Shown here: in pieces, positions 8,814-64,000 of the stretch
Layout of the letters: each line of letters starts with the position of its first letter
How positions within the stretch are numbered: the first letter of the stretch is position 1
Source of the DNA: an uncultured Chloroflexia bacterium
GTDB taxonomy: Bacteria > Chloroflexota > Limnocylindria > Limnocylindrales > CSP1-4
Direction: 5' to 3'
DNA: 64,000 nt
Assembly (NCBI GenBank): GCA_963746075.1
Contig: CAVUZY010000007.1
Span: forward strand, 335,338 to 399,337
The notes under the pieces: model-generated
Seen by the model: the letters and a program-made list of their open reading frames with translations, nothing else
Databases searched by the model: none
Told to the model about the DNA's origin: nothing
Position numbers and translations under genes: made by a program

Positions 8814-10637
8814 TCAGCCGGCCTCGAGCAGGATCGGGCGGACGATCCCCCACGAGTTCCAGAGCTCGGTCAGGCCGTCGGCCCGCCGGCCGAGCAGCGT
8901 CACGAGCTCGCCGAGGGTCAGGCCGCCGGCCGCTCCGGCGACGTACTCGTCGGCGGCGACCCGGACGTCGCGCAGCAGCTCCTGCGTCTCGGCCTCGGTC
9001 GGCCAGCGCCGGACGCGCATCGGATCGAGGCCGGCGTACCCGACCGCGAGGGACAGGTCGCGCTGGCTCGGCAGGCGGTCGTCGACCCAGCCGCCGAACC
9101 CGTCGAACCGGAACCCGAGCGAGGAGAGACCGGCCGCGATGTCGCGGTTCTGGGCCTGGTTGAACGGACCCCAGAACGGGTGCTCGAGCGGGAAGTCGAA
9201 CGCCACCGCCTCGATCGAGCGGGCGATCAGGGCCTCGGCCAGGCCACCGAGCTGGGTCTGCCAGAGGCGCCGCGCATCGGCGTCGTCACCCGCCAGCCGG
9301 CCGACGGCCTGCTGGAGGGCGTCGTGTTCGCCACGCAGGATCCGGAGGATCAGGGCATCCTGGCCCGCCTGCGAGTGCATCCTCGTCGAGAACTCGAACT
9401 CGTCCTCCGGCTCGGGGGTCGCGGCTGCGATCCGGCCCTCGCCGGCGTCGCCGTCCTCGGTCGTGGCGTCCGGGTCGTTGGCGGATCGTTCGGCGGCCTC
9501 CTCGAGGGTCCGGGCCTCGTCGCAGTCCGCGACCGCGTCGCGCGCTGCGGTGCAGGCCTCGTCGGCCCGTTCCGACGTGATCCGGGCGGCATCCGCTTCG
9601 ACGGCCAGCCGCTCCAGGGCGGGCACGAGGGCGGCCGCGGCGGCGCGGTCCCGCTCGAGTGCCGAGCTCGCTTCGCGGGTCTCGTGGTTGATCCGGTTGA
9701 TCTCGGCCAGCCAGGCGCGTGCGCCGGCCTCGACGTCGTCGCGGGTCTTGGCCTGGTTGCGCGCTTCGCGGAACCGTTGCTGGGCCTGCTCCTTGGCCGA
9801 CCGGACGGCGCGCGGATCGGCCAGCTCGGAGACGGCCTCAGCTCGGGCGACGTGCTCGTCGTAGGTTCGCTGGGCCTGGCGCAGCGCGTCCGCGGCGGTC
9901 GCCGCACCCTCTCGCGCCCGGGTCGCGACGGCGCAGCGCTCGTCCGCGACGCGGCGCTCCTCGGCGCACGGACCGTTCGCCGCGGGAGTTGCCGCCGGGG
10001 TGGCTGGTGGTGCGGGTGGGGAGGCCGGGCCCGGGCCCGTACTCGTCGCGCCTCCCGCGGTTGCGCCTCCCCCAGTTGGACCTCCCGCCGGAGCGCCGCC
10101 ACTCGGCGAAGCGCCCGCGGCGGTCGGGCCCGCGGCGGGCGCCGCCCCCGTGGAACCACCCCGTCCGGTCGGTCGGTCGCCGATCGCAACGTTTGACCCG
10201 GAGGAGCGAGCGGCCGGGGTGCCGCCGGCTGCCGAGGCCGCGCTGCCGCTCGACGTCGCCATCGCGGCGGGACGGGCCGCGCTCGCCCGGAAGGCGGCGG
10301 TCAGCGGGTCGGGCTCCATCGACATCGGGACCGCGACCATCCGAACAGGTGTTCCAGGCGCAGCGGACCCGGCCTTCACGCGTCGGCCGGTCGCGGCCGG
10401 TTCACCGGTCAGGGCAATCTCGTCGGTCGTGCGGCGATCGCCCGGTCCGCCACGCGCCGGCCCGGATCCCTCGGCCAGGGTCGCGGCCATCCGGGAGTGG
10501 ATGGCGTTCGGCGAGACGGTCACGCGGACCTCGCGAGAGGCGGGGGGACGGGAGCGGAGGACCTCGATCAGCGCAGCGCCGCTCGCGACGCCGAGGACCA
10601 GCCCGAGCGCGAGAAACGCAAACTCACTGGCCGTCAA
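8814..10637 (-). CDS. Membrane-anchored coiled-coil protein of unknown function
   Basis: TTG 10637 is preceded by AAGGAGGA at 9-nt spacing. It has an N-terminal TM (FAFLALGLVLGVASGAALIEVL), a Pro/Ala/Gly-rich linker, about 180 aa of Ala/Arg/Glu-rich helical region and about 190 aa of C-terminal globular region. I recognise no family. Confidence 0.7.
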   Translation of the reverse strand: MTASEFAFLALGLVLGVASGAALIEVLRSRPPASREVRVTVSPNAIHSRMAATLAEGSGPARGGPGDRRTTDEIALTGEPAATGRRVKAGSAAPGTPVRMVAVPMSMEPDPLTAAFRASAARPAAMATSSGSAASAAGGTPAARSSGSNVAIGDRPTGRGGSTGAAPAAGPTAAGASPSGGAPAGGPTGGGATAGGATSTGPGPASPPAPPATPAATPAANGPCAEERRVADERCAVATRAREGAATAADALRQAQRTYDEHVARAEAVSELADPRAVRSAKEQAQQRFREARNQAKTRDDVEAGARAWLAEINRINHETREASSALERDRAAAAALVPALERLAVEADAARITSERADEACTAARDAVADCDEARTLEEAAERSANDPDATTEDGDAGEGRIAAATPEPEDEFEFSTRMHSQAGQDALILRILRGEHDALQQAVGRLAGDDADARRLWQTQLGGLAEALIARSIEAVAFDFPLEHPFWGPFNQAQNRDIAAGLSSLGFRFDGFGGWVDDRLPSQRDLSLAVGYAGLDPMRVRRWPTEAETQELLRDVRVAADEYVAGAAGGLTLGELVTLLGRRADGLTELWNSWGIVRPILLEAG

Positions 10638-10923
10638 AGCCCGCAGTCCTCCTTGGCCGCCACCTGCGACCGGCGCCACACCCCAGCGGAGCGTAGCTGC
10701 GCACTCGTCCGAGGTCAACTCGCCGGGACCCCGTCCGGACGGCCCATCCGGCCGGTGGCATGAGCGTGGGGCGGCCCGGCCGACGCGACCGTCGTGGCCC
10801 CCGGCCGGGCTTTGCGAAGGCCGAGGCGCGGATGGTAGATTGGGGGCACCGGCCGAGGCCCTCGGTTCGTGCCGGCTGCGCGCTTCCCGGATCGTCCACT
10901 CCACTGAAAGGCACGTCCTCGAC

Positions 10924-12759
10924 TTGGCGCTCGACTCCTCCCAGGAATTCCTCGTCCAGCCCGTCGATGCCTCCTGGCTCCAGTGCAACATCGAGTGCCA
11001 GGAGGCGTGTCCGGTCGGGACGAACTGCCGCGGCTACCTGAACCTCGCTGCCGAAGGGCGGTTCGAGGAGGGCTACATCCTGTCGCGCGAGCCGAACCCG
11101 GTCGCCGCCATGTGCTCGTACGTCTGCTCTGCGCCATGCGAGCGGGCCTGCCGCCGCGGTGACATCGATCGGCCGCTCGCGATCCGGGCGATGAAGCGGT
11201 TCCTCGTGGAGTGGCACGAGGCGTCGGGGATCCCCGACGTCATGCCCCAGATCACGCCCCGCGGCGAGAGCGTCGCGGTCGTGGGCGCCGGCCCGGCCGG
11301 GATCGCCGTCGCCCGTGAGCTGGCGATGAAGGGCATCCAGGTCTCCGTCTTCGACAGCCTGCCGTACGGCGGCGGGACGATGCTCATCGGGGTGCCGGCG
11401 TTCCGCCTCCCGCGCGAGGCGATCGAGATGGACGTCCGTCTCGTCGAGCGCCTCGGGGTCACGTTCCGCTTCAACACGACGATCGGCAAGGACATCACGA
11501 TGGAGGAGCTCCAGCGGGACTACGACGCCGTCGCGCTGACTGCCGGCGCGATGGATCCAGTCGCCCTCGACATCCCGGGCGGCGATCTCGACGGCGTCGA
11601 CTACGGGGTCGACTTCATGAAGAAGGCGAACCTCGGCCAGGAGCTGTACGTCGGCAAGGACGTGGTCGTGATCGGCGGCGGCTACACCGCGATGGACTGC
11701 TCGCGGACGAGTCTCCGCCACGGCGCGGAGCGGGTCTCGATCGTCTACCGCCGGACGCGGTCCGAGCTGGTCGTCGACGAGGAGGAGCTCGGCGAGACCG
11801 AGCGCGAGGGTGTCCGGATGGAGTTCCTCGCCAGCCCCGTCGAGGTCCTTGGCGAGGACGGCCACGTCACGGGCGTCAGGTTCATCCGCAACCGCCTGGG
11901 CGAGCCGGACGCGTCCGGTCGCCGATCGCCGGTCCCGATCGAGGGCAGCGAGTTCGTCATCGCGGCCGACGTCGTCATCCCGGCGGTGTCGCAGGCGGCG
12001 GACCTGACGTTCCTGCCGGTCGAGCCCGCGTTTGAGATCAACCGCGGCCGGGTCAAGGTCGACCCCGCGACGTACGCCACCAACACCCGCGGCGTGTTCG
12101 CCTGCGGCGACTTCGTGACCGGCCCCACGACCCTCATCGAGGCCGCCGGCCACGGCAAGAAGTGCGCCTACGCGATCGATCGCTATCTGTCGGGCCGGAC
12201 CGACGTGACGGTTACCCCCAACGTCAAGATCACGAGCTCGTGGCGCCACGACATGCCCGAGTTCTACGACGTCCTGCCGCGCCAGCACATCCCGATGGCG
12301 CCGCTCCAGGTCCGGATGCCGTCAACCGATCCGGAGGTCAACTTCAACACCCCGGTCGAGTACGGCTACGACGCCACGGCCGCGGTCGCGGAGTCGACGC
12401 GCTGCCTGATGTGCAACTTCAACATCTGGTTCGACCCGTTCCGGTGCGTCCTGTGCGGCGCCTGCGCCGACGTCTGCCCCGAGGGCGTCATCCACATGGT
12501 CGACGTCAACCAGCTCAAGACCGAGGGCCTCCTGCCCGAGATCGAGGAGTCGTACGGCTGGGAGAACGGGGCGGCGATGATCCTCGACGAGGAGCGCTGC
12601 ATCCGCTGCGCGTTGTGCGTCAAGCGTTGCCCGTTCGACGCCATTACGATGGAGCGGTTCGAGCTCCAGGAGATCTCGACCGACGGGCGGCTCTACAAGG
12701 AGTCGTACCGGGATGCGCAGCTTGCCGGGACCCCCGGCGTCGCAGGAGGAGCCCGGTGA
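10924..12759 (+). CDS. GltD/NfnB-like FAD/NAD(P)H oxidoreductase fused to a C-terminal 2x[4Fe-4S] ferredoxin domain
   Basis: N-terminal Cys clusters CQEACPVGTNC and CSYVCSAPCERAC. Dinucleotide folds VAVVGAGPAGIAVA and VVVIGGGYTAMDC, plus FACGDF. C-terminal CVLCGACADVCP and CIRCALCVKRCP. The stop overlaps the cyt b GTG. Start is uncertain (TTG 10924 proposed); the upstream part of the 919-aa ORF is antisense to the neighbouring gene. Confidence 0.8.
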   Translation: MALDSSQEFLVQPVDASWLQCNIECQEACPVGTNCRGYLNLAAEGRFEEGYILSREPNPVAAMCSYVCSAPCERACRRGDIDRPLAIRAMKRFLVEWHEASGIPDVMPQITPRGESVAVVGAGPAGIAVARELAMKGIQVSVFDSLPYGGGTMLIGVPAFRLPREAIEMDVRLVERLGVTFRFNTTIGKDITMEELQRDYDAVALTAGAMDPVALDIPGGDLDGVDYGVDFMKKANLGQELYVGKDVVVIGGGYTAMDCSRTSLRHGAERVSIVYRRTRSELVVDEEELGETEREGVRMEFLASPVEVLGEDGHVTGVRFIRNRLGEPDASGRRSPVPIEGSEFVIAADVVIPAVSQAADLTFLPVEPAFEINRGRVKVDPATYATNTRGVFACGDFVTGPTTLIEAAGHGKKCAYAIDRYLSGRTDVTVTPNVKITSSWRHDMPEFYDVLPRQHIPMAPLQVRMPSTDPEVNFNTPVEYGYDATAAVAESTRCLMCNFNIWFDPFRCVLCGACADVCPEGVIHMVDVNQLKTEGLLPEIEESYGWENGAAMILDEERCIRCALCVKRCPFDAITMERFELQEISTDGRLYKESYRDAQLAGTPGVAGGAR

Positions 12760-13484
12760 GTTTCCTCGAGCGGGTGGATCAGACCATCCGCCGGAGTCCC
12801 GTCTGGCGCTCGATCTTCCGTCAGCCGTACCCCAACGACGAGCGGTCGCGGGCGTACGCGGTGATGAACAACGTCTTCCTGCACATCCACCCGGTGCGCG
12901 TCCGGCAGCACGCGGTGAAGTTCGCCTACACCTTCTGCCTCGGTGGGCTGTCGTTCTTCCTGTTCCTCGTGCTGACGATCACCGGCGTCTACCTGATGTT
13001 CTTCTACGTCCCGTCCGCGACGCTCGCGTACACGAACATCCTCGACATCCAGAGCCAGGTGACATTCGGGCTGCTGACCCGGAACATCCATCGCTGGGGC
13101 GCCCACCTGATGGTGTTCTTCGTCTTCCTCCACATGATGCGGGTCTTCTACCACGGGGCCTACAAGCCGCCGCGCGAGTTCAACTGGGTCGTCGGCGTGG
13201 TGCTTCTGTTCCTGACGATCATGCTGAGCTTCACGGGCTACCTGCTGCCGTGGGACCAGATCGCGTACTGGGCGATCACGATCGGCACGAACATGGGTGG
13301 CTATGCGCCGCTCCTGAACGTCCCGGTCAACCGGCTGCTCCTGGGCGGCCTCGAGGTCGGCCAGAACACGCTCCTCCGCTTCTACGTGCTCCACATCATG
13401 GTGTTCCCGTTGGCAGCCGCGATCTTCCTGGCCGTCCACTTCTGGCGAATCAGAAAAGACGGAGGCATCAGCGGACCCCTGTGA
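12756..13484 (+). CDS. qcrB: Cytochrome b6-type subunit (4-helix N-terminal cytochrome b) of a Rieske/cyt b complex
   Basis: 242 aa. Haem His pairs sit in RNIHRWGAHLMVFFVFLHMMR and RFYVLHIMVFPLAAAIFLAVHFWRIRK. FCLGG Cys is at the haem ci position. It ends ...RKDGGISGPL as PetB/QcrB proteins do. GTGA overlap with the upstream gene. Confidence 0.92.
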   Translation: MSFLERVDQTIRRSPVWRSIFRQPYPNDERSRAYAVMNNVFLHIHPVRVRQHAVKFAYTFCLGGLSFFLFLVLTITGVYLMFFYVPSATLAYTNILDIQSQVTFGLLTRNIHRWGAHLMVFFVFLHMMRVFYHGAYKPPREFNWVVGVVLLFLTIMLSFTGYLLPWDQIAYWAITIGTNMGGYAPLLNVPVNRLLLGGLEVGQNTLLRFYVLHIMVFPLAAAIFLAVHFWRIRKDGGISGPL

Positions 13485-13575
13485 TGTCGGACCGATTCGC
13501 CCGATCACGCGCTCACCGAGGCCCGAGGAGGAGCTCCGCGACTCCATCGGCCCGAGGTGGAATCAGCGGTCCGCG

Positions 13576-13650
13576 ATGACCGACACGAAGCAACCTCGGA
13601 CCATTGGCCTCGGCGGAGCTCGGCCTTGGGCCTCGGTGAGCCATGACTGA
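13576..13650 (+). other. 24-codon upstream ORF whose first 7 codons (MTDTKQP) duplicate the start of the subunit IV gene
   Basis: ATGACCGACACGAAGCAACCT compared with ATGACTGATACGAAACAGCCC at 13643 gives the same peptide with 5 synonymous differences. The stop (13648-13650) overlaps the subunit IV start region. Translation is unproven. Confidence 0.3.
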
Positions 13651-14260
13651 TACGAAACAGCCCACCGACAAGCGGGTCGTCCTTCCTGTGGACCCGACTC
13701 GCAGGACGGAGATCGACAAGCAGCGGGTGCCGATGTCGGCTCGGCCGTACCGGCTCCTCGCGCTCGTCAAGCAGGACGCCGTCGTCCGGGTCCAGAAGGA
13801 ACCCGACGACACGGTCATGACCTGGCCGCACCTGCTCTCGATCGAGTTCCTCGCGGCCGGCATGATGAGCGTGTTCCTGCTCCTGATGGGCCTGTTCATC
13901 AACGCCCCGCTCGAGGAGCTTGCGAACAGCAACGTCACGCCGGCCGTGGCCAAGGCGCCGTGGTACTTCCTCGGGCTCCAGGAGTTGCTCGCCTACTTCC
14001 ACCCCACGGTGGCCGGCGTCCTGACCCCGTTGCTGGTGCTCGTCGGGGCCGCCCTGATCCCGTTCGTCGACCGCGGCAACCTGACCGCGACCCGGCCCTC
14101 GGAGCGCAAGACCGCGGTCATCCTGTTCACGCTGTTCTGCGCCCTGGGCCTGATCCTGACGTTCGTCGGGATCTTCTTCCGCGGCCCGGGCTACAGCTTC
14201 GTCATCCCGTACCTGCCGTTCTTCGAGAACACCTCCCCCGGCCTGCACTTCTCCCTGTGA
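13643..14260 (+). CDS. Cytochrome b C-terminal part / subunit IV (PetD-like) of the Rieske/cyt b complex
   Basis: 205 aa with three predicted TM helices. Qo-site block VAKAPWYFLGLQELL corresponds to the canonical PEWYF region. Confidence 0.88.
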   Translation: MTDTKQPTDKRVVLPVDPTRRTEIDKQRVPMSARPYRLLALVKQDAVVRVQKEPDDTVMTWPHLLSIEFLAAGMMSVFLLLMGLFINAPLEELANSNVTPAVAKAPWYFLGLQELLAYFHPTVAGVLTPLLVLVGAALIPFVDRGNLTATRPSERKTAVILFTLFCALGLILTFVGIFFRGPGYSFVIPYLPFFENTSPGLHFSL

Positions 14261-14312
14261 GCCCCTCCACCGAGAGACCGATGACTCCGAACCACGCCCC
14301 GAGCCACTTCGC

Positions 14313-14987
14313 ATGAGCAACTATCACGTCGAGCCGGTCGACCGGCCGAAGGCCCTCGCCCCCGAGGCGATCAAGGCGCTCCGCCGCGCCCAGGTCAAGG
14401 GCGTCTCGCGGCGCCAGCTTCTGCGCTACTCGATCGGCGGCGCGATCGGCCTCTGGCTCCTCGAGGTCACGGCAGGGACGATCGGCTTCATCTGGCCGAA
14501 CCTGACCGGCGGCTTCGGCAGCAAGGTCCGGATCGGCACTCTCGACGATCTCAAGCTCGCCAACAGCGCCCTCCCAATCAGCGATGGGTATCCGGCCTAC
14601 GTCCCCGACGCCCGGGCTTACATCGTCCTGATCGACACCGGCCAGCAGGGCTTCATCGCCGGCGAGGACACGACCGGCGACGGTCATCCCCTCAATGTCC
14701 GGGGCCTGTACCAGCGCTGTCCCCATCTCGGCTGCAAGCCGAACCCGTGCATCAGGAACTTCTGGCTGGAGTGCCCGTGCCACGGGTCGCGCTACGACCG
14801 GCTCGGCATCAAGGCCGAGGGCGCCCAGTACGGCCCGGCCGCGCGCGGGATGGACCGCTTCTCGGCCAGCGTCGACGGCGCGGGCGTCCTGACCCTCGAC
14901 ACCGGCAAGATCACCCTCGGCCCGCTGCCGGTTGCGGTCGGCCAGCCAGGCATCATCCCGCCGCGCACCCCGACCGGGTGCATCTGA
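14313..14987 (+). CDS. qcrA: Rieske [2Fe-2S] subunit with Tat signal
   Basis: Twin-arginine signal VSRRQLLRYSIGGAIG. Cluster boxes CPHLGC and CPCHGS. Confidence 0.92.
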   Translation: MSNYHVEPVDRPKALAPEAIKALRRAQVKGVSRRQLLRYSIGGAIGLWLLEVTAGTIGFIWPNLTGGFGSKVRIGTLDDLKLANSALPISDGYPAYVPDARAYIVLIDTGQQGFIAGEDTTGDGHPLNVRGLYQRCPHLGCKPNPCIRNFWLECPCHGSRYDRLGIKAEGAQYGPAARGMDRFSASVDGAGVLTLDTGKITLGPLPVAVGQPGIIPPRTPTGCI

Positions 14988-16150
14988 TGACCGACCAGAC
15001 GCCGGCGCCGATCCCCGAGGGGACCCCGGAGCCCGTGCCCGACGGAGGCGCCGAGGAGCAGCGCCTGCCGGCGACCGTTCCGCCCGCGACGCTGTCCGCC
15101 GACCGGTTCAGCGCGGTGCCGGCGATCAAGAACAACGCGGGCCTGACGCCCCAGCGCTCGGCCGGGATCGTGCGCCAGTCGGCGTCGGCCCGCTGGGTCG
15201 GCTTGCTGACCGTCATCTTCGTCAGCCTGTTCATCGTCGGCTACTGGTTCTACGAGCTCGGTGCGCCGGCGGGGATCTCGAAGGCGCGGCTCGCCGAGGA
15301 GATCGACGCCCAGCAGGTGACGGCCGTCGAGCGCGGCTACAACCTGTACGAGGCGAACTGCGCCCGCTGCCACGGGCCGGGCGGATTGGGGCCCGACGAG
15401 CCGGACGCCGCGGCCAAGGCGGCTGCCGGTCAGGGCTACATCGGGCCGCGGCTCAACGCCCAGGAGAAGCTGTTCGCCCACCTCAGCGAGGCGTATCTGA
15501 ACAACGTTCTGCTCGTCGGCGGCCGCTACGTCTGCGGCAACGCGACGTCGGCGATGCCGGTCTGGTCGGACCAGGGCAACCCGCCGGGTCCCCTGAACTA
15601 TCGCCAGATCGACGAGCTGATCGCGTTCCTGCGGGCGACCAACGAGCACGAGTACGAGGTCCGCGATCCCTCGACGAACGAGCCGATCATCGACCCGGCG
15701 ACGGGCAAGGTGAAGACGTTCACCGGCTGGCGCGATCCGAACTACAAGCCGGATCCGGCCGCGACGCCCTACCCGGCTTGCTACATTGATGCCCTGACCG
15801 GCGGCGCCGGCGGCTCGGCCGCTCCGGGTGCCTCCGTCGACCCGAACGCGCCCGTCGTCACGGTCGCGGCGCCCGATGGGTCCGCGACGACCGGCTTCAC
15901 CCCGACCACCCTCGAGGCCAAGGCCGACACCGCGTTCACCCTCGTCTTCGACAACCAGGACGCCACGACCGGTCCGCACAACGTGGTGATCAGCGACTCA
16001 TCCGGCACGGCGATCGCGATCGGCGACACGGCTTTCTTCACCGGTCCCGCGAAGCGGAGCTACGCGGTGCCGGCGCTCAAGGCCGGGTCGTATCCGTTCG
16101 TGTGCCAGGTCCACGTGTCGACGATGAAGGGCACCCTCGAAGTCAAGTAG
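14987..16150 (+). CDS. Membrane-anchored monohaem cytochrome c fused to a C-terminal type-1 copper (cupredoxin) domain
   Basis: The ATG shares one base with the Rieske TGA. TM WVGLLTVIFVSLFIVGYWFY. Haem motif CARCH with distal SAMPVW. C-terminal cupredoxin has ligand pattern GPHNV ... FVCQVHVSTM (H, C-x2-H-x3-M). Confidence 0.88.
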   Translation: MTDQTPAPIPEGTPEPVPDGGAEEQRLPATVPPATLSADRFSAVPAIKNNAGLTPQRSAGIVRQSASARWVGLLTVIFVSLFIVGYWFYELGAPAGISKARLAEEIDAQQVTAVERGYNLYEANCARCHGPGGLGPDEPDAAAKAAAGQGYIGPRLNAQEKLFAHLSEAYLNNVLLVGGRYVCGNATSAMPVWSDQGNPPGPLNYRQIDELIAFLRATNEHEYEVRDPSTNEPIIDPATGKVKTFTGWRDPNYKPDPAATPYPACYIDALTGGAGGSAAPGASVDPNAPVVTVAAPDGSATTGFTPTTLEAKADTAFTLVFDNQDATTGPHNVVISDSSGTAIAIGDTAFFTGPAKRSYAVPALKAGSYPFVCQVHVSTMKGTLEVK

Positions 16151-16193: not shown

Positions 16194-17656
16194 ATGGCGC
16201 AGCAGGCCCTGAACCCGGGAACCACACAGACGCGCGGACGGGCGATGTTCGGCCTGCTCGACGCGAACGGGTGGGGCTGGGCGTCGCTGAAGGCCGCGTT
16301 CTGGTTCGTCCTGCTGATCTTCATGCTCGGCTACGTCCCGGATCGGGCGTACTACTTCACGGTCAACAAGACGATCGACCTGGGGATCCTCGCCTGGAGC
16401 CCGCTCAACTTCTGCCCCGAGGGCAATCGGACGCTGCCGTGCCCGGCGCCGGTCGGAGCGATGGTGCCGTGGGAGGCCTCGCCCGCGGACATCTCGCTGC
16501 CCGGAGCCGCGGACCGACGGCGCGATGGTCCAGTCCGGGACGACGATCCTGTACGTCGGCGGGTCGGACGGGTCGGCGGCATCGGCCAAGACCTTCATCT
16601 CGAAGACGTCCGGCACCGGCAACTTCGACAAGTGGACCGCCGGCCCAGACCTGCCCGAGCCACGCTCGAACCTGTCGGTCATCTACTCCGGCGGCAAGAT
16701 CTACGCGATCGGCGGGAACGGCGCCGACGGCCAGCCAACCGCCACCGTGTACGTCCTGACGCCGGACTCGAAGACCGGCGCCTTGGGCGAGTGGCAGACG
16801 ACCGAGGAGGCCAAGCTCGACCTGGCCCTCCCCGAGCCGCGAGCCGGCACGGCCGTCGTTGCCGCGTCCGATGGCCTGCTCCTCGTCGGCGGCACGAACG
16901 GCACGGCCCCGGTCGATACCGTCTGGAAGACGACCTTCGATTCCAAGGGCGTGCCGAGCAAGTGGACGCCGCAGGCCGGCAAGCTCTTCACGCCGGTTAC
17001 GGATGCGTCGGCGGCGATCGTCGGCAGCTATCTGTGGGTCTATGGCGGGACGGCTCCCGGCGTCAACGCGATCCCGAGCGTCCAGCGCGGCGAGTTCGGT
17101 ACCGGCGCCGACGCGACGAAGATCACCCGGTTCGGCGTCCAGGGCGGCACGACGGACCTGCCGGCGCCGCGCACGAACCTGGTCGGGTTCGCCGCGAACG
17201 GCGCCCTCTACGCGGTCGGCGGGTCCGACGGGACGACGCCCCAGACCAGCGCGTACTGGGCAATCCCCAATGCCGTCGGAGAGCTCGGTGGCTGGAAGCA
17301 TCTCGACGTCAGCGACCTTCCGACGGGCCTGGCCGGCGGCGCGCCGATCATCCTCGGGCCGGATGCCATCGCGGTCGGCGGAACGACCGACCGCGGGCGT
17401 CACGAACGCCAGCCACCGGGCGAACATCGCCCCGGAGGCGCCGTTCTTCCAGCTCGGCCTCGTCGGTGCGACGGTTCCAGCCCTGAAGATCGACGGTGAG
17501 ATCGGCCAGCAGCTCGGCTATCTCAACGCCAACACGATCGGCATCGTGAACTTCGCGCTCTTCGTCGTCATCGGCTGGGCGTTCGCCCACCGCGCGCAGA
17601 TCAAGGAATGGCGCGACCGACGCCGGCGCGAATCGGAGCTCAAGAAGCGCGCCTGA
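16194..17656 (+). pseudogene. Kelch-repeat beta-propeller protein with N- and C-terminal TM helices; two frame interruptions (~16510 and ~17395)
   Basis: Three consecutive frames: 16194 (MAQQ...FWFVLLIFMLGYVP...ISLPGA), 16525 (TILYVGG, GKIYAIGG, GLLLVGG, SYLWVYGG, GALYAVGG Kelch blades) and 16859 (...APFFQLG...IGIVNFALFVVIGWAFAH...KKRA). Confidence 0.75.
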
Positions 17657-62365: not shown

Positions 62366-62902
62366 TCATTGCCCGCCGGCGATGGCCGCGTATTGGCGCT
62401 CGAAATCGGTGTCGACGACCTCGCCGATCTGGATCGACTGGAGGATCCCGTTTCGGTCGACGAAATAGGTCTGCGGCCGGCCGAGCACCCGGTAGGCCGC
62501 CTTGATGCGGGCGCCCGGATCGATGACCGTCGCCCACGTCCCGCCGTTCGCCGCCGCGAACGCCCGGGCGGGCTCGACCGGATCGTCGGTCAGGACGCCG
62601 ACGATCACCAGGCCGTCGGCTCCGTGCTCGGCGGCCTTGCGAGCCAGGAGCGGGAACTCGGTCCGGCACGGGACGCACGTCGGGCCCCAGAAGTTGATGA
62701 TCACCGGCTTGCCGCGGAGTGTCGCGAGGTCGAATGGCGCCCCGTCGAGCGTCGTTCCCGTGATGTTCGGAACCGGCTTGCCCTTGCCGATCTCGATGGT
62801 CGTCGCCGGGCCGCACGCAACGACGCCGAGGGCGACAATCGCGGCGACGATGAGGCGGAGCAGGGCGCCAACGAGCCGGGTCGACCGGCGCGGTGAGGTC
62901 AT
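62366..62902 (-). CDS. TlpA/ResA-like thiol:disulfide oxidoreductase lipoprotein
   Basis: Lipobox GVVAC and thioredoxin motif FWGPTCVPC. Confidence 0.88.
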   Translation of the reverse strand: MTSPRRSTRLVGALLRLIVAAIVALGVVACGPATTIEIGKGKPVPNITGTTLDGAPFDLATLRGKPVIINFWGPTCVPCRTEFPLLARKAAEHGADGLVIVGVLTDDPVEPARAFAAANGGTWATVIDPGARIKAAYRVLGRPQTYFVDRNGILQSIQIGEVVDTDFERQYAAIAGGQ

Positions 62903-62918
62903 TTGCGCGCGGTGCGGC

Positions 62919-64000
62919 TCAGCCGCCGACGGTCAGCGTGCCGGTCATCAGGGATGGATGGATCGAGCACTCGAACTTGTACGCGCCGGCCTTCAAGGGC
63001 GGCACGTCGAACGTCTTCACGGCGATGCCGGGGAAGTCCTTCATGTCGTAGACCTTCGCCCCGCCGTCGTCGAGGAAGTCGACGTCGTGGGGCGTCGAGG
63101 CGTCCTTGTTGTCGAGCGTGATCTTGAACGGCGCGTCCGCCGGGGCTGCGAGGGTTGCCTGGTCGAACTTCACGCCCGAGGCGATGATCGAGATCCCGCC
63201 CGGACCCGGTCCACCGGATCCCGGCGGCCCACCCGACGGGGCCGCGGAGCCGCCAGGCTCGCCCGAGCCACCGGCCGCGGAGCGCGGCGGGAACCAGCCG
63301 GCGTTGAGGGCGACGGACACAACGAGAAGGAAGGCGAACACCGACACGACGGTCTTCGGCCAGCCGGGCGCCGGGTCGTTCTCGAGATGGCCGGTCGAGT
63401 CGGCCCGGACGACCTGCTTGTACTCCTTGCGGGCGTCGCTGAGCCAGCCGAGCAGGGCGGCGATCGTGAACAGCACGCCGACCGCCAGGATCCAGCCGCC
63501 GAAGACGAGGCCCGCGAACAGGACGAACAGCCCGAGCGAGGCGAGGATCGGGCGGAACGACGGACCGGGCATGTGGACGCCGGGCGGGGGTCCGGGATGC
63601 TCGATCGGCGCCAGCTGCGGATGATCGCCGGCGACGTGGTCGTAGTCGACGAGGGCCTCGCGACCCCAGTAGAGCAGGCTCAGGACCAGGACGACCAGCC
63701 CGATGACGAGGGTCGGTCCGCCGAAGACGAGCCCCAGGACGAGAAGGAACGTTCCGATCGCTCCGTAGAGGGGGGCGTAGGTCGGGCCCGGCATGTGGAT
63801 CCCGGGCGGGGTCACCGGCTCGATCCGGCCCGGCCGGCGGCGGCGCGGACCGAGCCGCGCGTACTGGTAGACGACCCGGATGAAGAAGAGGACCACCACG
63901 ACGCCCATGAACACGGGCAGGAGCGAGATCAGGGCGCCCCAGTCCGGGATGACGAGGAGCTTGGTGAGATCGAGGATCCCGTTCCAGATCTGCTCGAGGA
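62919..64000 (-). CDS. Polytopic membrane protein with duplicated CtaF-like (oxidase subunit IV-like) module fused to a C-terminal cupredoxin; 5' end lies outside the window
   Basis: The frame stays open to position 64000 (...LEQIWNGILDLTKLLVIPDWGALISLLPVFMGVVVV...). Two copies of PPG[IV]HMPGP[ST][YF]xP, each followed by a TM hairpin. C-terminal PHDV...FECSIHPSLM gives type-1 Cu ligands. Confidence 0.7.
   Translation of the reverse strand, partial: LEQIWNGILDLTKLLVIPDWGALISLLPVFMGVVVVLFFIRVVYQYARLGPRRRRPGRIEPVTPPGIHMPGPTYAPLYGAIGTFLLVLGLVFGGPTLVIGLVVLVLSLLYWGREALVDYDHVAGDHPQLAPIEHPGPPPGVHMPGPSFRPILASLGLFVLFAGLVFGGWILAVGVLFTIAALLGWLSDARKEYKQVVRADSTGHLENDPAPGWPKTVVSVFAFLLVVSVALNAGWFPPRSAAGGSGEPGGSAAPSGGPPGSGGPGPGGISIIASGVKFDQATLAAPADAPFKITLDNKDASTPHDVDFLDDGGAKVYDMKDFPGIAVKTFDVPPLKAGAYKFECSIHPSLMTGTLTVGG

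Follow-up and report, generated by a model that had tools for sequence, protein, structure and literature searches.

A five-gene operon in a 64-kb stretch of DNA from an uncultured Chloroflexia bacterium of the class Limnocylindria (contig CAVUZY010000007.1; the whole stretch is referred to as the window) encodes a b6f-type Rieske/cytochrome b complex and, as its first product, an iron-sulfur (FeS) flavoprotein, whose architecture is confined to such operons. With roughly even confidence, we propose that the five products form one membrane complex, in which the flavoprotein provides an NADP(H) module on the membrane's negative side (n-side), and that its likeliest mode of operation is quinol-driven reduction of NADP+, as has been proposed for the anammox planctomycete Kuenenia. 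The five genes lie within positions 10924–16150 of the window:

10924–12759, forward strand: NADP(H)- and flavin adenine dinucleotide (FAD)-dependent iron-sulfur flavoprotein, 611 amino acids (aa), TTG start, TGA stop (Pfam, PDB, AlphaFold2 model)
12756–13484, forward strand: cytochrome b6-type subunit, 242 aa, GTG start (PF00033, NCBIfam ExtP, motifs)
13643–14260, forward strand: subunit IV, 205 aa, with the motif APWY at the quinol oxidation site (Qo) (PF00032, ExtQ-like NCBIfam match)
14313–14987, forward strand: Rieske [2Fe-2S] protein, 224 aa, with twin-arginine signal/anchor (PF00355, motifs)
14987–16150, forward strand: membrane-anchored fusion of a monohaem cytochrome c and a type-1-copper cupredoxin (gene 5), 387 aa (Pfam, motifs)

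Reading of the open reading frames (ORFs) together with Pfam and NCBIfam matches recovered all five genes at the coordinates given in an initial annotation of this DNA. That annotation had described five same-strand genes with minimal spacing, of which the first part stands, whereas the second does not, as 158 nucleotides (nt) separate the cytochrome b6 gene from that for subunit IV and another 52 nt lie between subunit IV and the Rieske gene. Its two remaining junctions read exactly as claimed: the flavoprotein stop and the cytochrome b6 start overlap in the tetranucleotide GTGA (12756–12759), and the Rieske stop shares one base with the start of gene 5 in TGATG (14985–14989). Likewise, the assignment of a twin-arginine Rieske protein, a subunit IV and a cytochrome c-cupredoxin fusion is upheld by Pfam matches and motifs. 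No terminator-like sites were found on the forward strand within the five-gene cluster, and the start of the 611-aa flavoprotein is backed by orthologues of the same length.

The ~610-aa flavoprotein architecture is exclusive to Rieske/cytochrome b operons. A genome scan with one genome per species, for which flavoprotein alignment A2 was used because the 33-sequence alignment A1 was too divergent, returned 80 loci. The linked architecture was defined as a complete protein of 600–655 aa with an NfnL module and exactly two C-terminal CxxCxxCxxxC motifs, and was compared with 40 homologues of other architecture flanked by at least 2 kb on both sides (~500-aa NfnL/GltD proteins, 560–590-aa proteins with one motif, and 850–1350-aa NfnA-like proteins). 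Rieske/cytochrome b/subunit IV genes follow on the same strand after all ten proteins of the linked architecture, which come from six phyla, but after none of the 40 others (Fisher p ~ 1e-10). A cytochrome b gene lies 3′ of the flavoprotein gene in loci L002–L004 (Limnocylindria/'Chloroflexia'), L005, L009, L020 and L064 (Acidobacteriota), L006 (Abyssobacteria), L008 (Eisenbacteria), L016 (Nitrospirae) and L025 (Verrucomicrobia). The synteny between flavoprotein and cytochrome b, on which the initial annotation had made its proposal depend, is thus kept in Limnocylindria, Acidobacteriota, Nitrospirota, Verrucomicrobiota, Eisenbacteria and Abyssobacteria. Since the arrangement recurs in L001–L004 and in six of the seven informative metagenome contigs that are near-identical to the window, a chance juxtaposition can be dismissed. 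Furthermore, start and stop of the flavoprotein gene and the next gene overlap not only in the window, but also in L001, L003, L016 and L064 (by four nucleotides in these four relatives). L001 and the window share 90.8 % of residues in the flavoprotein, 90.5 % in cytochrome b, 82 % in subunit IV, 64.7 % in the Rieske protein and 50.3 % in gene 5; by these identities, the flavoprotein is under constraint at the level of a core subunit.

The clusters from other phyla (L005–L025 and L064, of the type of Dibrova subfamily G) share with the window the flavoprotein architecture (33–36 % identity), the APWY motif of subunit IV, the CPCHGS box of the Rieske protein, the N-terminal LH motif of cytochrome b and tight or overlapping junctions. 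They differ in gene order, which is flavoprotein-Rieske-cytochrome b there and flavoprotein-b6-IV-Rieske in the window, in the frequent fusion of cytochrome b to subunit IV, in the loss of the CxGG haem cn motif from most of the linked cytochromes, and in a subunit with four to nine c-type haems that is followed by a terminal enzyme. In L025, the cluster of flavoprotein, Rieske, cytochrome b and multihaem cytochrome c genes is succeeded by the cbb3 oxidase genes for CcoN and CcoO (13307–15269) and in L020 by that for NosZ (12161–14944), while a molybdopterin oxidoreductase of ~1150 aa with a twin-arginine signal follows in L005 (13980–17411), L006 (14214–17714) and L009 (13620–17099). In each of these loci, a candidate enzyme for the terminal redox step thus accompanies the linked module, in the same way as kuste4574 does in Kuenenia. 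Such adjacency is a prediction of coupling between a favourable reaction on the membrane's positive side (p-side) and an unfavourable one on the n-side, yet it is compatible with ordinary dedicated quinol:acceptor chains, too.

An independent recruitment of the Limnocylindria flavoprotein is a possibility that was considered with neighbour-joining trees that had no outgroup. In a first tree, the unlinked L014 and L032 proteins, both of which are devoid of the two-motif C-terminal domain, fell next to the Limnocylindria flavoprotein, whereas a tree of architecture-complete flavoproteins contained only linked members in two deep groups.

The flavoprotein itself carries the hallmarks of an NfnL/GltD module, i. 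e. a Fer4_20 two-cluster domain (residues 19–101, 61 bits), a Pyr_redox_2 match (residues 116–411, 97 bits), a GxGxxG FAD-binding Rossmann fold and a second, NADPH-binding fold that ends in YRR (YRRTR in the window protein). The two dinucleotide folds are marked by GAGPAG (121–126) and GGGYTAMD (251–258). Two Fer4 motifs detected by Pfam and two CxxCxxCxxxCP motifs, CVLCGACADVCP (508–519) and CIRCALCVKRCP (559–570), define the C-terminal ferredoxin domain. The best NCBIfam match is PRK12771, the model of an 'NAD(P)-binding protein' subfamily, with 431.8 bits over residues 22–577, which is under the cutoff of 516 bits. PDB sequence searches rank NfnA (9n5u, 9bov/9bp5) and StnC (8oh5_C) first, with E values of 1e-110 to 1e-95, followed by NfnB/NfnL (4ylf_B), GltD and dihydropyrimidine dehydrogenase, and further matches include 5t5i_F and 5jca. 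The same ranking was obtained by Foldseek (query TM-score 0.71 to NfnA/StnC) with an AlphaFold2 monomer model (pLDDT, the predicted local distance difference test score, 86.5; pTM, the predicted TM-score, 0.86). Hence, the initial view of a GltD/NfnB-like flavoprotein with a ferredoxin domain agrees with Pfam, PDB and fold matches alike, and the profile and structure searches that it had suggested point to NfnA/StnC as the nearest fold.

This relationship is informative with respect to the cofactors. In NfnA of Caldicellulosiruptor saccharolyticus (Csac), electrons take a linear path from NADPH via FAD to the clusters A7, A6 and beyond, with FAD at the end of the chain, and A7 is ligated by Cys108, Cys147, Cys151 and Lys170 (PMC11829005). 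These residues align without gaps with C29, C68, C72 and K91 of the window flavoprotein, and Csac Cys100, Cys104, Cys114 and Cys155 align with C21, C25, C35 and C76; of these positions, C25, C29, C68, C72, C76 and K91 are invariant in alignment A2. The two N-terminal ligand sets together with the two CxxCxxCxxxCP motifs thus predict four [4Fe-4S]-type clusters in series, of which the FAD-proximal one would be held by three Cys and one Lys. A preference for NADPH over NADH is suggested by the same homology. Common to the window protein, NfnA (Csac 9bov, T. sibiricus 9n5u) and StnC of StnABC (8oh5) are the NADPH-FAD NfnL module, the cluster with three Cys and one Lys and the putative linear [4Fe-4S] wire. 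In contrast, NfnA and StnC are longer (950–1180 aa), include an N-terminal and a formate-dehydrogenase-like domain and dock on soluble BfuBC flavin modules, whereas the window flavoprotein has nothing beyond its ferredoxin domain of two clusters, and its gene is accompanied by those of membrane cytochromes. Ahead of both ferredoxin motifs, an invariant RCxxC pair (C494/C497; residues 493–497, window 12400–12414) brings the C-terminal domain to ten Cys, while eight are needed for two clusters; in NfnA, its aligned counterpart is the first Cys of an additional cluster motif.

In NfnSL, of which the structures 4ylf and 5jca are among the matches, the FAD within the NfnL fold is a bifurcating one, and the window flavoprotein has separate N-terminal and C-terminal cluster sets. 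Conceivably, its FAD could thus bifurcate as in NfnSL and, in a manner resembling FixABCX, divide the electrons of NADPH between a low-potential branch that leads via the N-terminal clusters to ferredoxin and a high-potential branch that leads via the C-terminal clusters and cytochrome b to membrane quinone. We consider this scenario highly improbable, as no NfnS-type partner ([2Fe-2S], second FAD) is encoded in or beside the operon, as FAD in NfnA of NfnABC terminates one linear chain and does not bifurcate (PMC11829005), and as all four clusters stand in one line in models of the Kuenenia complexes (PMC12954380). With linear NfnA as homologue and without an encoded NfnS partner, the flavoprotein is more plausibly an NADP(H)-linked FeS wire than a bifurcating flavoenzyme.

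The membrane core shows the features of a split b6f-type complex, namely two His pairs in a four-helix cytochrome b (with 13 and 14 residues in between), a separate Qo-bearing subunit IV and the CxHxGC/CxCHGS boxes of a Rieske protein. Cytochrome b6 (PF00033, E = 3e-46) presents its four haem b His as pairs at 112/126 and 213/228, a CLGG haem cn motif at 61–64 and, in the N-terminal part, the motif FLHIHP that is typical of the clade. The b6 proteins of spinach and cyanobacteria align only to residues 59–242, i. e. the N-terminal 58 residues are without canonical counterpart, and the protein is closer to the linked cytochromes b of other phyla (46–56 % identity) than to canonical b6. Subunit IV (PF00032, E = 7e-8) carries APWY at residues 105–108 and comprises three helices according to a crude hydropathy count on the near-identical L001 and L002 proteins. 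The Rieske protein combines the twin-arginine motif SRRQLL with CPHLGC and CPCHGSRY, the latter being a high-potential Ser/Tyr signature; the CPCHGS Ser is retained in 13 of 13 linked homologues, with Tyr or Phe two residues on. In gene 5, Cupredoxin_1 (43 bits, cutoff 27), Cytochrome_CBB3 and Cytochrom_C were matched above cutoff, whereas a PDB sequence search with this protein gave no significant match. It contains a hydrophobic helix (70–89), a single CxxCH in the form of CARCH (125–129) and, in GPHN (329–332) and CQVHVSTM (373–380), the ligand pattern His/Cys/His/Met that is expected of a type-1 copper site.

By its motifs, the complex is assigned to the APWY cytochrome b clade of Kao & Hunte 2014, which corresponds roughly to Dibrova subfamily G. 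This clade comprises delta-Proteobacteria, Chloroflexi, Nitrospirales, Planctomycetes and Actinobacteria, has no characterised member, and is paired with Rieske proteins of medium to high potential (S-Y or S-F) (PMC4122944). Among other APWY-clade complexes, the Geobacter proteins ExtO/ExtP/ExtQ (Cbc-type), whose operon is one of selenite/tellurite reduction, provide a point of reference: the window cytochrome b6 passes the NCBIfam cutoff for ExtP (292.2 bits, cutoff 290), subunit IV matches ExtQ below its cutoff (54.4 bits, cutoff 150), and APWY is shared. The ext cluster, however, is without a flavoprotein and is surrounded by genes for multihaem cytochromes, a porin and a rhodanese (PMC5877670), a context that is absent from the window locus.

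On this basis, the following mechanism may be envisaged. The core would act as a quinol oxidase of the b6f type from the APWY clade, with electron exit on the outer p-side through haem c and the type-1 copper centre. On the cytoplasmic n-side, the flavoprotein would form a link of FAD and four [4Fe-4S]-type clusters between NADP(H) and the low-potential haems bP, bN and cn. Upon oxidation of quinol at Qo, the first electron could run downhill to the Rieske protein, haem c and copper and then to an oxidase and O2, and this step would pay for the transfer of the second electron via bP, bN, the FeS chain and FAD to NADP+. With menaquinone at about −70 mV and NADP+ at −320 mV, such Qo-driven NADP+ reduction would need a first acceptor of high potential (argument of PMC12954380). 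That the flavoprotein physically binds the membrane complex and that electrons pass between it and haems bN/cn is our inference, and this applies above all to the direction in which they flow; quinol bifurcation is put forward as a hypothesis for the window just as it was for Kuenenia.

The Kuenenia complexes encoded by Kuste4569–4574 and Kustd1480–1485 ('bc-2/bc-3') were compared with the window by means of published descriptions, without direct sequence comparison. In the models of Kuste4569–4573 and Kustd1480–1485, one n-side NAD(P) reductase each is present, whose four FeS clusters lie in line, with the FAD-proximal cluster being devoid of a fourth Cys and touching a Lys, and an extra haem b between the monomers is predicted, with His43 of both cytochromes b as its ligands (PMC12954380). 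The two Rieske proteins feature Ser/Tyr and Ser/Phe at +303 and +335 mV in a menaquinone organism (PMC12954380). Several of these traits recur in the window: a flavoprotein gene immediately 5′ of a split cytochrome b, NfnABC (9bp5/9bov) and FwdF (5t5i) as nearest solved homologues of the flavoprotein (9bp5 and 5t5i being the closest structural homologues of Kuste4570, PMC12954380), a predicted total of four clusters with a Lys adjacent to the first, a Rieske Ser(/Tyr) signature, the CxGG haem cn motif and an N-terminal His of cytochrome b. Unlike in the window, where it is located downstream of cytochrome b, the Rieske gene is found upstream in Kuenenia, and the latter is an anaerobic planctomycete, while the window stems from an apparently aerobic soil member of the Chloroflexota.

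The same components could also operate in the reverse direction, i. e. electrons might pass from NADPH via FAD and the FeS clusters to the n-side haems (cn/bN) and on to quinone at the quinone reduction site (Qi), so that the complex would work as an NADPH:cytochrome c/copper oxidoreductase that contains its own Q cycle. NADPH donates electrons to the NfnL-type module in all solved homologues (PMC11829005), its oxidation by menaquinone is strongly downhill, the CLGG motif for haem cn is kept in the window cytochrome b6, and an aerobic-looking organism with a high-potential c/copper p-side would be in keeping with this direction. A comparable role has been proposed for ferredoxin:NADP+ reductase (FNR) bound to the chloroplast b6f complex, together with which FNR is purified (Zhang 2001, cited in PMC5600118). 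Chloroplast and cyanobacterial b6f with FNR share with the window a cytochrome b that is split into b6 and subunit IV, haem cn and, given the proposed binding of the flavoprotein, an NADP-linked flavoenzyme at the periphery of the n-side. FNR, however, is of unrelated fold, contains no FeS cluster and is encoded apart from the complex, and the Qo motif of b6f is PEWY instead of APWY. Moreover, such a device would offer no gain over a type-2 NAD(P)H dehydrogenase and waste ~250 mV, as has been argued for Kuenenia (PMC12954380), the loss of CxGG from most linked homologues of other phyla implies that a cn-dependent entry is not general, and the uniformly high-potential Rieske signature would be left unexplained. 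We therefore regard reverse operation as rather unlikely.

Several observations weigh against a quinol-driven complex with an integral NADP(H) module. Why an aerobic heterotroph should have to reduce NADP+ uphill is not obvious. With respect to Kuenenia, subunit IV has three helices instead of five, and a single haem c with one type-1 copper takes the place of the multihaem cytochrome c and the enzyme resembling hydroxylamine oxidoreductase on the p-side. No membrane segment is predicted in the flavoprotein, its C-terminal 19 residues are disordered in the AlphaFold2 model, and fusions to cytochrome b or Rieske domains were not encountered in a Pfam scan of ten long homologues, whose extensions were identified as Fer2_4, a rubredoxin domain or a response-regulator domain, or did not resemble any known domain. 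When metagenomes were scanned with a cytochrome b alignment, 80 clade members were obtained, of which 38 had at least 2.6 kb of upstream sequence, and only five of these 38 operons include the flavoprotein. It thus is an optional, lineage-specific accessory rather than a core subunit of this cytochrome b clade, and it is fixed in the lineage of the window. The N-terminal His43, although invariant in 13 of 13 linked cytochromes b, lends no specific support, as each of the 80 metagenome clade members has it as well, including at least 33 that are without flavoprotein in the available upstream flank (2.7–7 kb); the use of this His as a marker of flavoprotein-linked complexes was rejected, since linked and unlinked cytochromes carry it alike. 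Finally, the sole exception among the seven informative contigs, L124, encodes a near-identical cytochrome b6 on its own. This gene (L124:5034–5777, 89 % identical to that of the window) has ComEC/ComEA-like genes on one side and a LuxR-type AAA regulator on the other, with the G+C content falling from 0.73 to 0.65 exactly at cytochrome b6, and the contig may be chimeric or harbor an orphan paralogue.

Some of these points would be accounted for if the flavoprotein were a soluble NADPH:ferredoxin-type oxidoreductase, which is co-transcribed, for example for redox balancing, but acts outside the complex. The missing membrane segment and the majority of operons of the same cytochrome b clade that do without it are in line with this idea, and so are relatives in soluble contexts. 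For instance, a one-motif relative in an alphaproteobacterial metagenome-assembled genome (L014:9515–13509) has a 2-oxoacid:ferredoxin oxidoreductase and another Pyr_redox_2 protein as its neighbours, from which it follows that the wider family also occurs in soluble ferredoxin-linked settings. Database labels are of a generic kind: more than 120 cluster representatives at 87–97 % identity, the named ones from 'Candidatus Limnocylindrales' or 'Chloroflexi', are called only 'glutamate synthase beta subunit-like oxidoreductase/ferredoxin' or 'formate dehydrogenase beta subunit'. A soluble role nevertheless seems improbable in view of the strict linkage of the ~610-aa architecture across six phyla and two gene orders, the conserved start/stop overlaps and a degree of conservation that equals that of cytochrome b. 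In addition, all subunits of the homologous Kuenenia complexes co-migrate, the flavoprotein homologues with the membrane subunits included (de Almeida 2016, as cited in PMC12954380).

A membrane complex with bound flavoprotein would also permit a broader generalisation, which we advance with considerable reservation. The Limnocylindria-type complex, from one of the most abundant lineages of aerobic soil bacteria, might be a quinol-bifurcating NADPH generator, and the ~610-aa flavoprotein a portable n-side 'plug' that turns APWY-clade complexes of at least six phyla into respiration-driven NADP+ reductases, with O2, N2O or the substrates of molybdoenzymes as terminal acceptors.

In contrast to the statement of the initial annotation that NAD(P)-linked Rieske/cytochrome b clusters had been discussed only for anammox bacteria, a cytochrome b subfamily that co-occurs with NAD(P)-binding FeS proteins outside this group is already in print (Dibrova et al. 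2017, PMC5600118), and Chloroflexi were listed in the APWY clade before (PMC4122944). A passage of the 2017 paper credits the same association to Dibrova et al. 2013. Flavoprotein-bearing Rieske/cytochrome b complexes are therefore a known, though uncharacterised kind, and the label of a candidate novel respiratory module had to be abandoned. What appears to be new is the Limnocylindria variant with its haem c-cupredoxin p-side, its gene order flavoprotein-b6-IV-Rieske and its aerobic soil lineage, for which no describing paper was found in a literature search, as well as the exclusive link of one flavoprotein architecture with Rieske/cytochrome b operons and the repeated occurrence of the module next to terminal oxidoreductases. 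The idea that a Rieske/cytochrome b complex might reduce NAD(P)+ by bifurcation at the Qo site goes back to the anammox proposal, and the Kuenenia complexes lend themselves poorly to a test of it, because they are large, rich in haems and derived from a slow-growing anaerobe. The window operon represents the simplest version among those compared: its five genes provide for a single haem c, a single copper centre and a subunit IV of three helices. As it also stems from an aerobic lineage, it is a more tractable candidate for heterologous expression, cryo-electron microscopy and activity assays. The architecture-linkage result can be used directly for the annotation of proteins whose present labels are 'glutamate synthase beta-like' or 'formate dehydrogenase beta'.

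Two further features adjoin or interrupt the operon:

13485–13642, forward strand: spacer of 158 nt, holding a 24-codon ORF at 13577–13651 (direct sequence reading)
16194–17656, forward strand: Kelch-repeat membrane protein gene, split over three frames (tblastn with the L001 protein)

The spacer between the genes for cytochrome b6 and subunit IV varies in length, with 158 nt in the window, 93 nt in L002 and 46 nt in L001. Its 24-codon ORF (MTDTKQPRTIGLGGARPWASVSHD*) opens with MTDTKQP, the first seven residues of subunit IV, from the start of which it differs at third codon positions only, and its 3′ end overlaps the subunit IV ATG. The ORF may have arisen from a small 5′ duplication, may act as a leader ORF or may be an artefact of the assembly. 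Directly 3′ of gene 5, the Kelch-repeat gene is present in the window, L001 and L002 and is possibly the sixth gene of the operon. The intact 476-aa protein of L001 matches frames 3, 1 and 2 of the window in succession, with shifts near 16500 and 17400, i. e. the window copy is either a pseudogene or affected by indel errors of the assembly. An internal frame break that resembles this one occurs in gene 5 of L002.

A genomic G+C content of ~71 % and the names attached to the flavoprotein relatives mark the host as a member of the Chloroflexota of the Limnocylindria type. No other respiratory genes were found among ten further window ORFs that were scanned. Upstream of the operon, a long divergent ORF (8814–10991, reverse strand) encodes a low-complexity protein rich in Ala, Pro and Glu with one hydrophobic segment and without Pfam match, the position of which is kept in L001 (617 aa there). 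Its longest reading overlaps the start of the flavoprotein gene, and the true start thus probably is internal. At the far end of the window, a second cupredoxin-domain protein (62919–63998, reverse strand) runs off the sequence. Its C-terminal domain is 44 % identical to that of gene 5, and its gene adjoins one for an AhpC/TSA-Redoxin (TlpA-like) thiol-disulfide protein (62366–62932, reverse strand); it may be a paralogous copper carrier, or the two may form a maturation pair.

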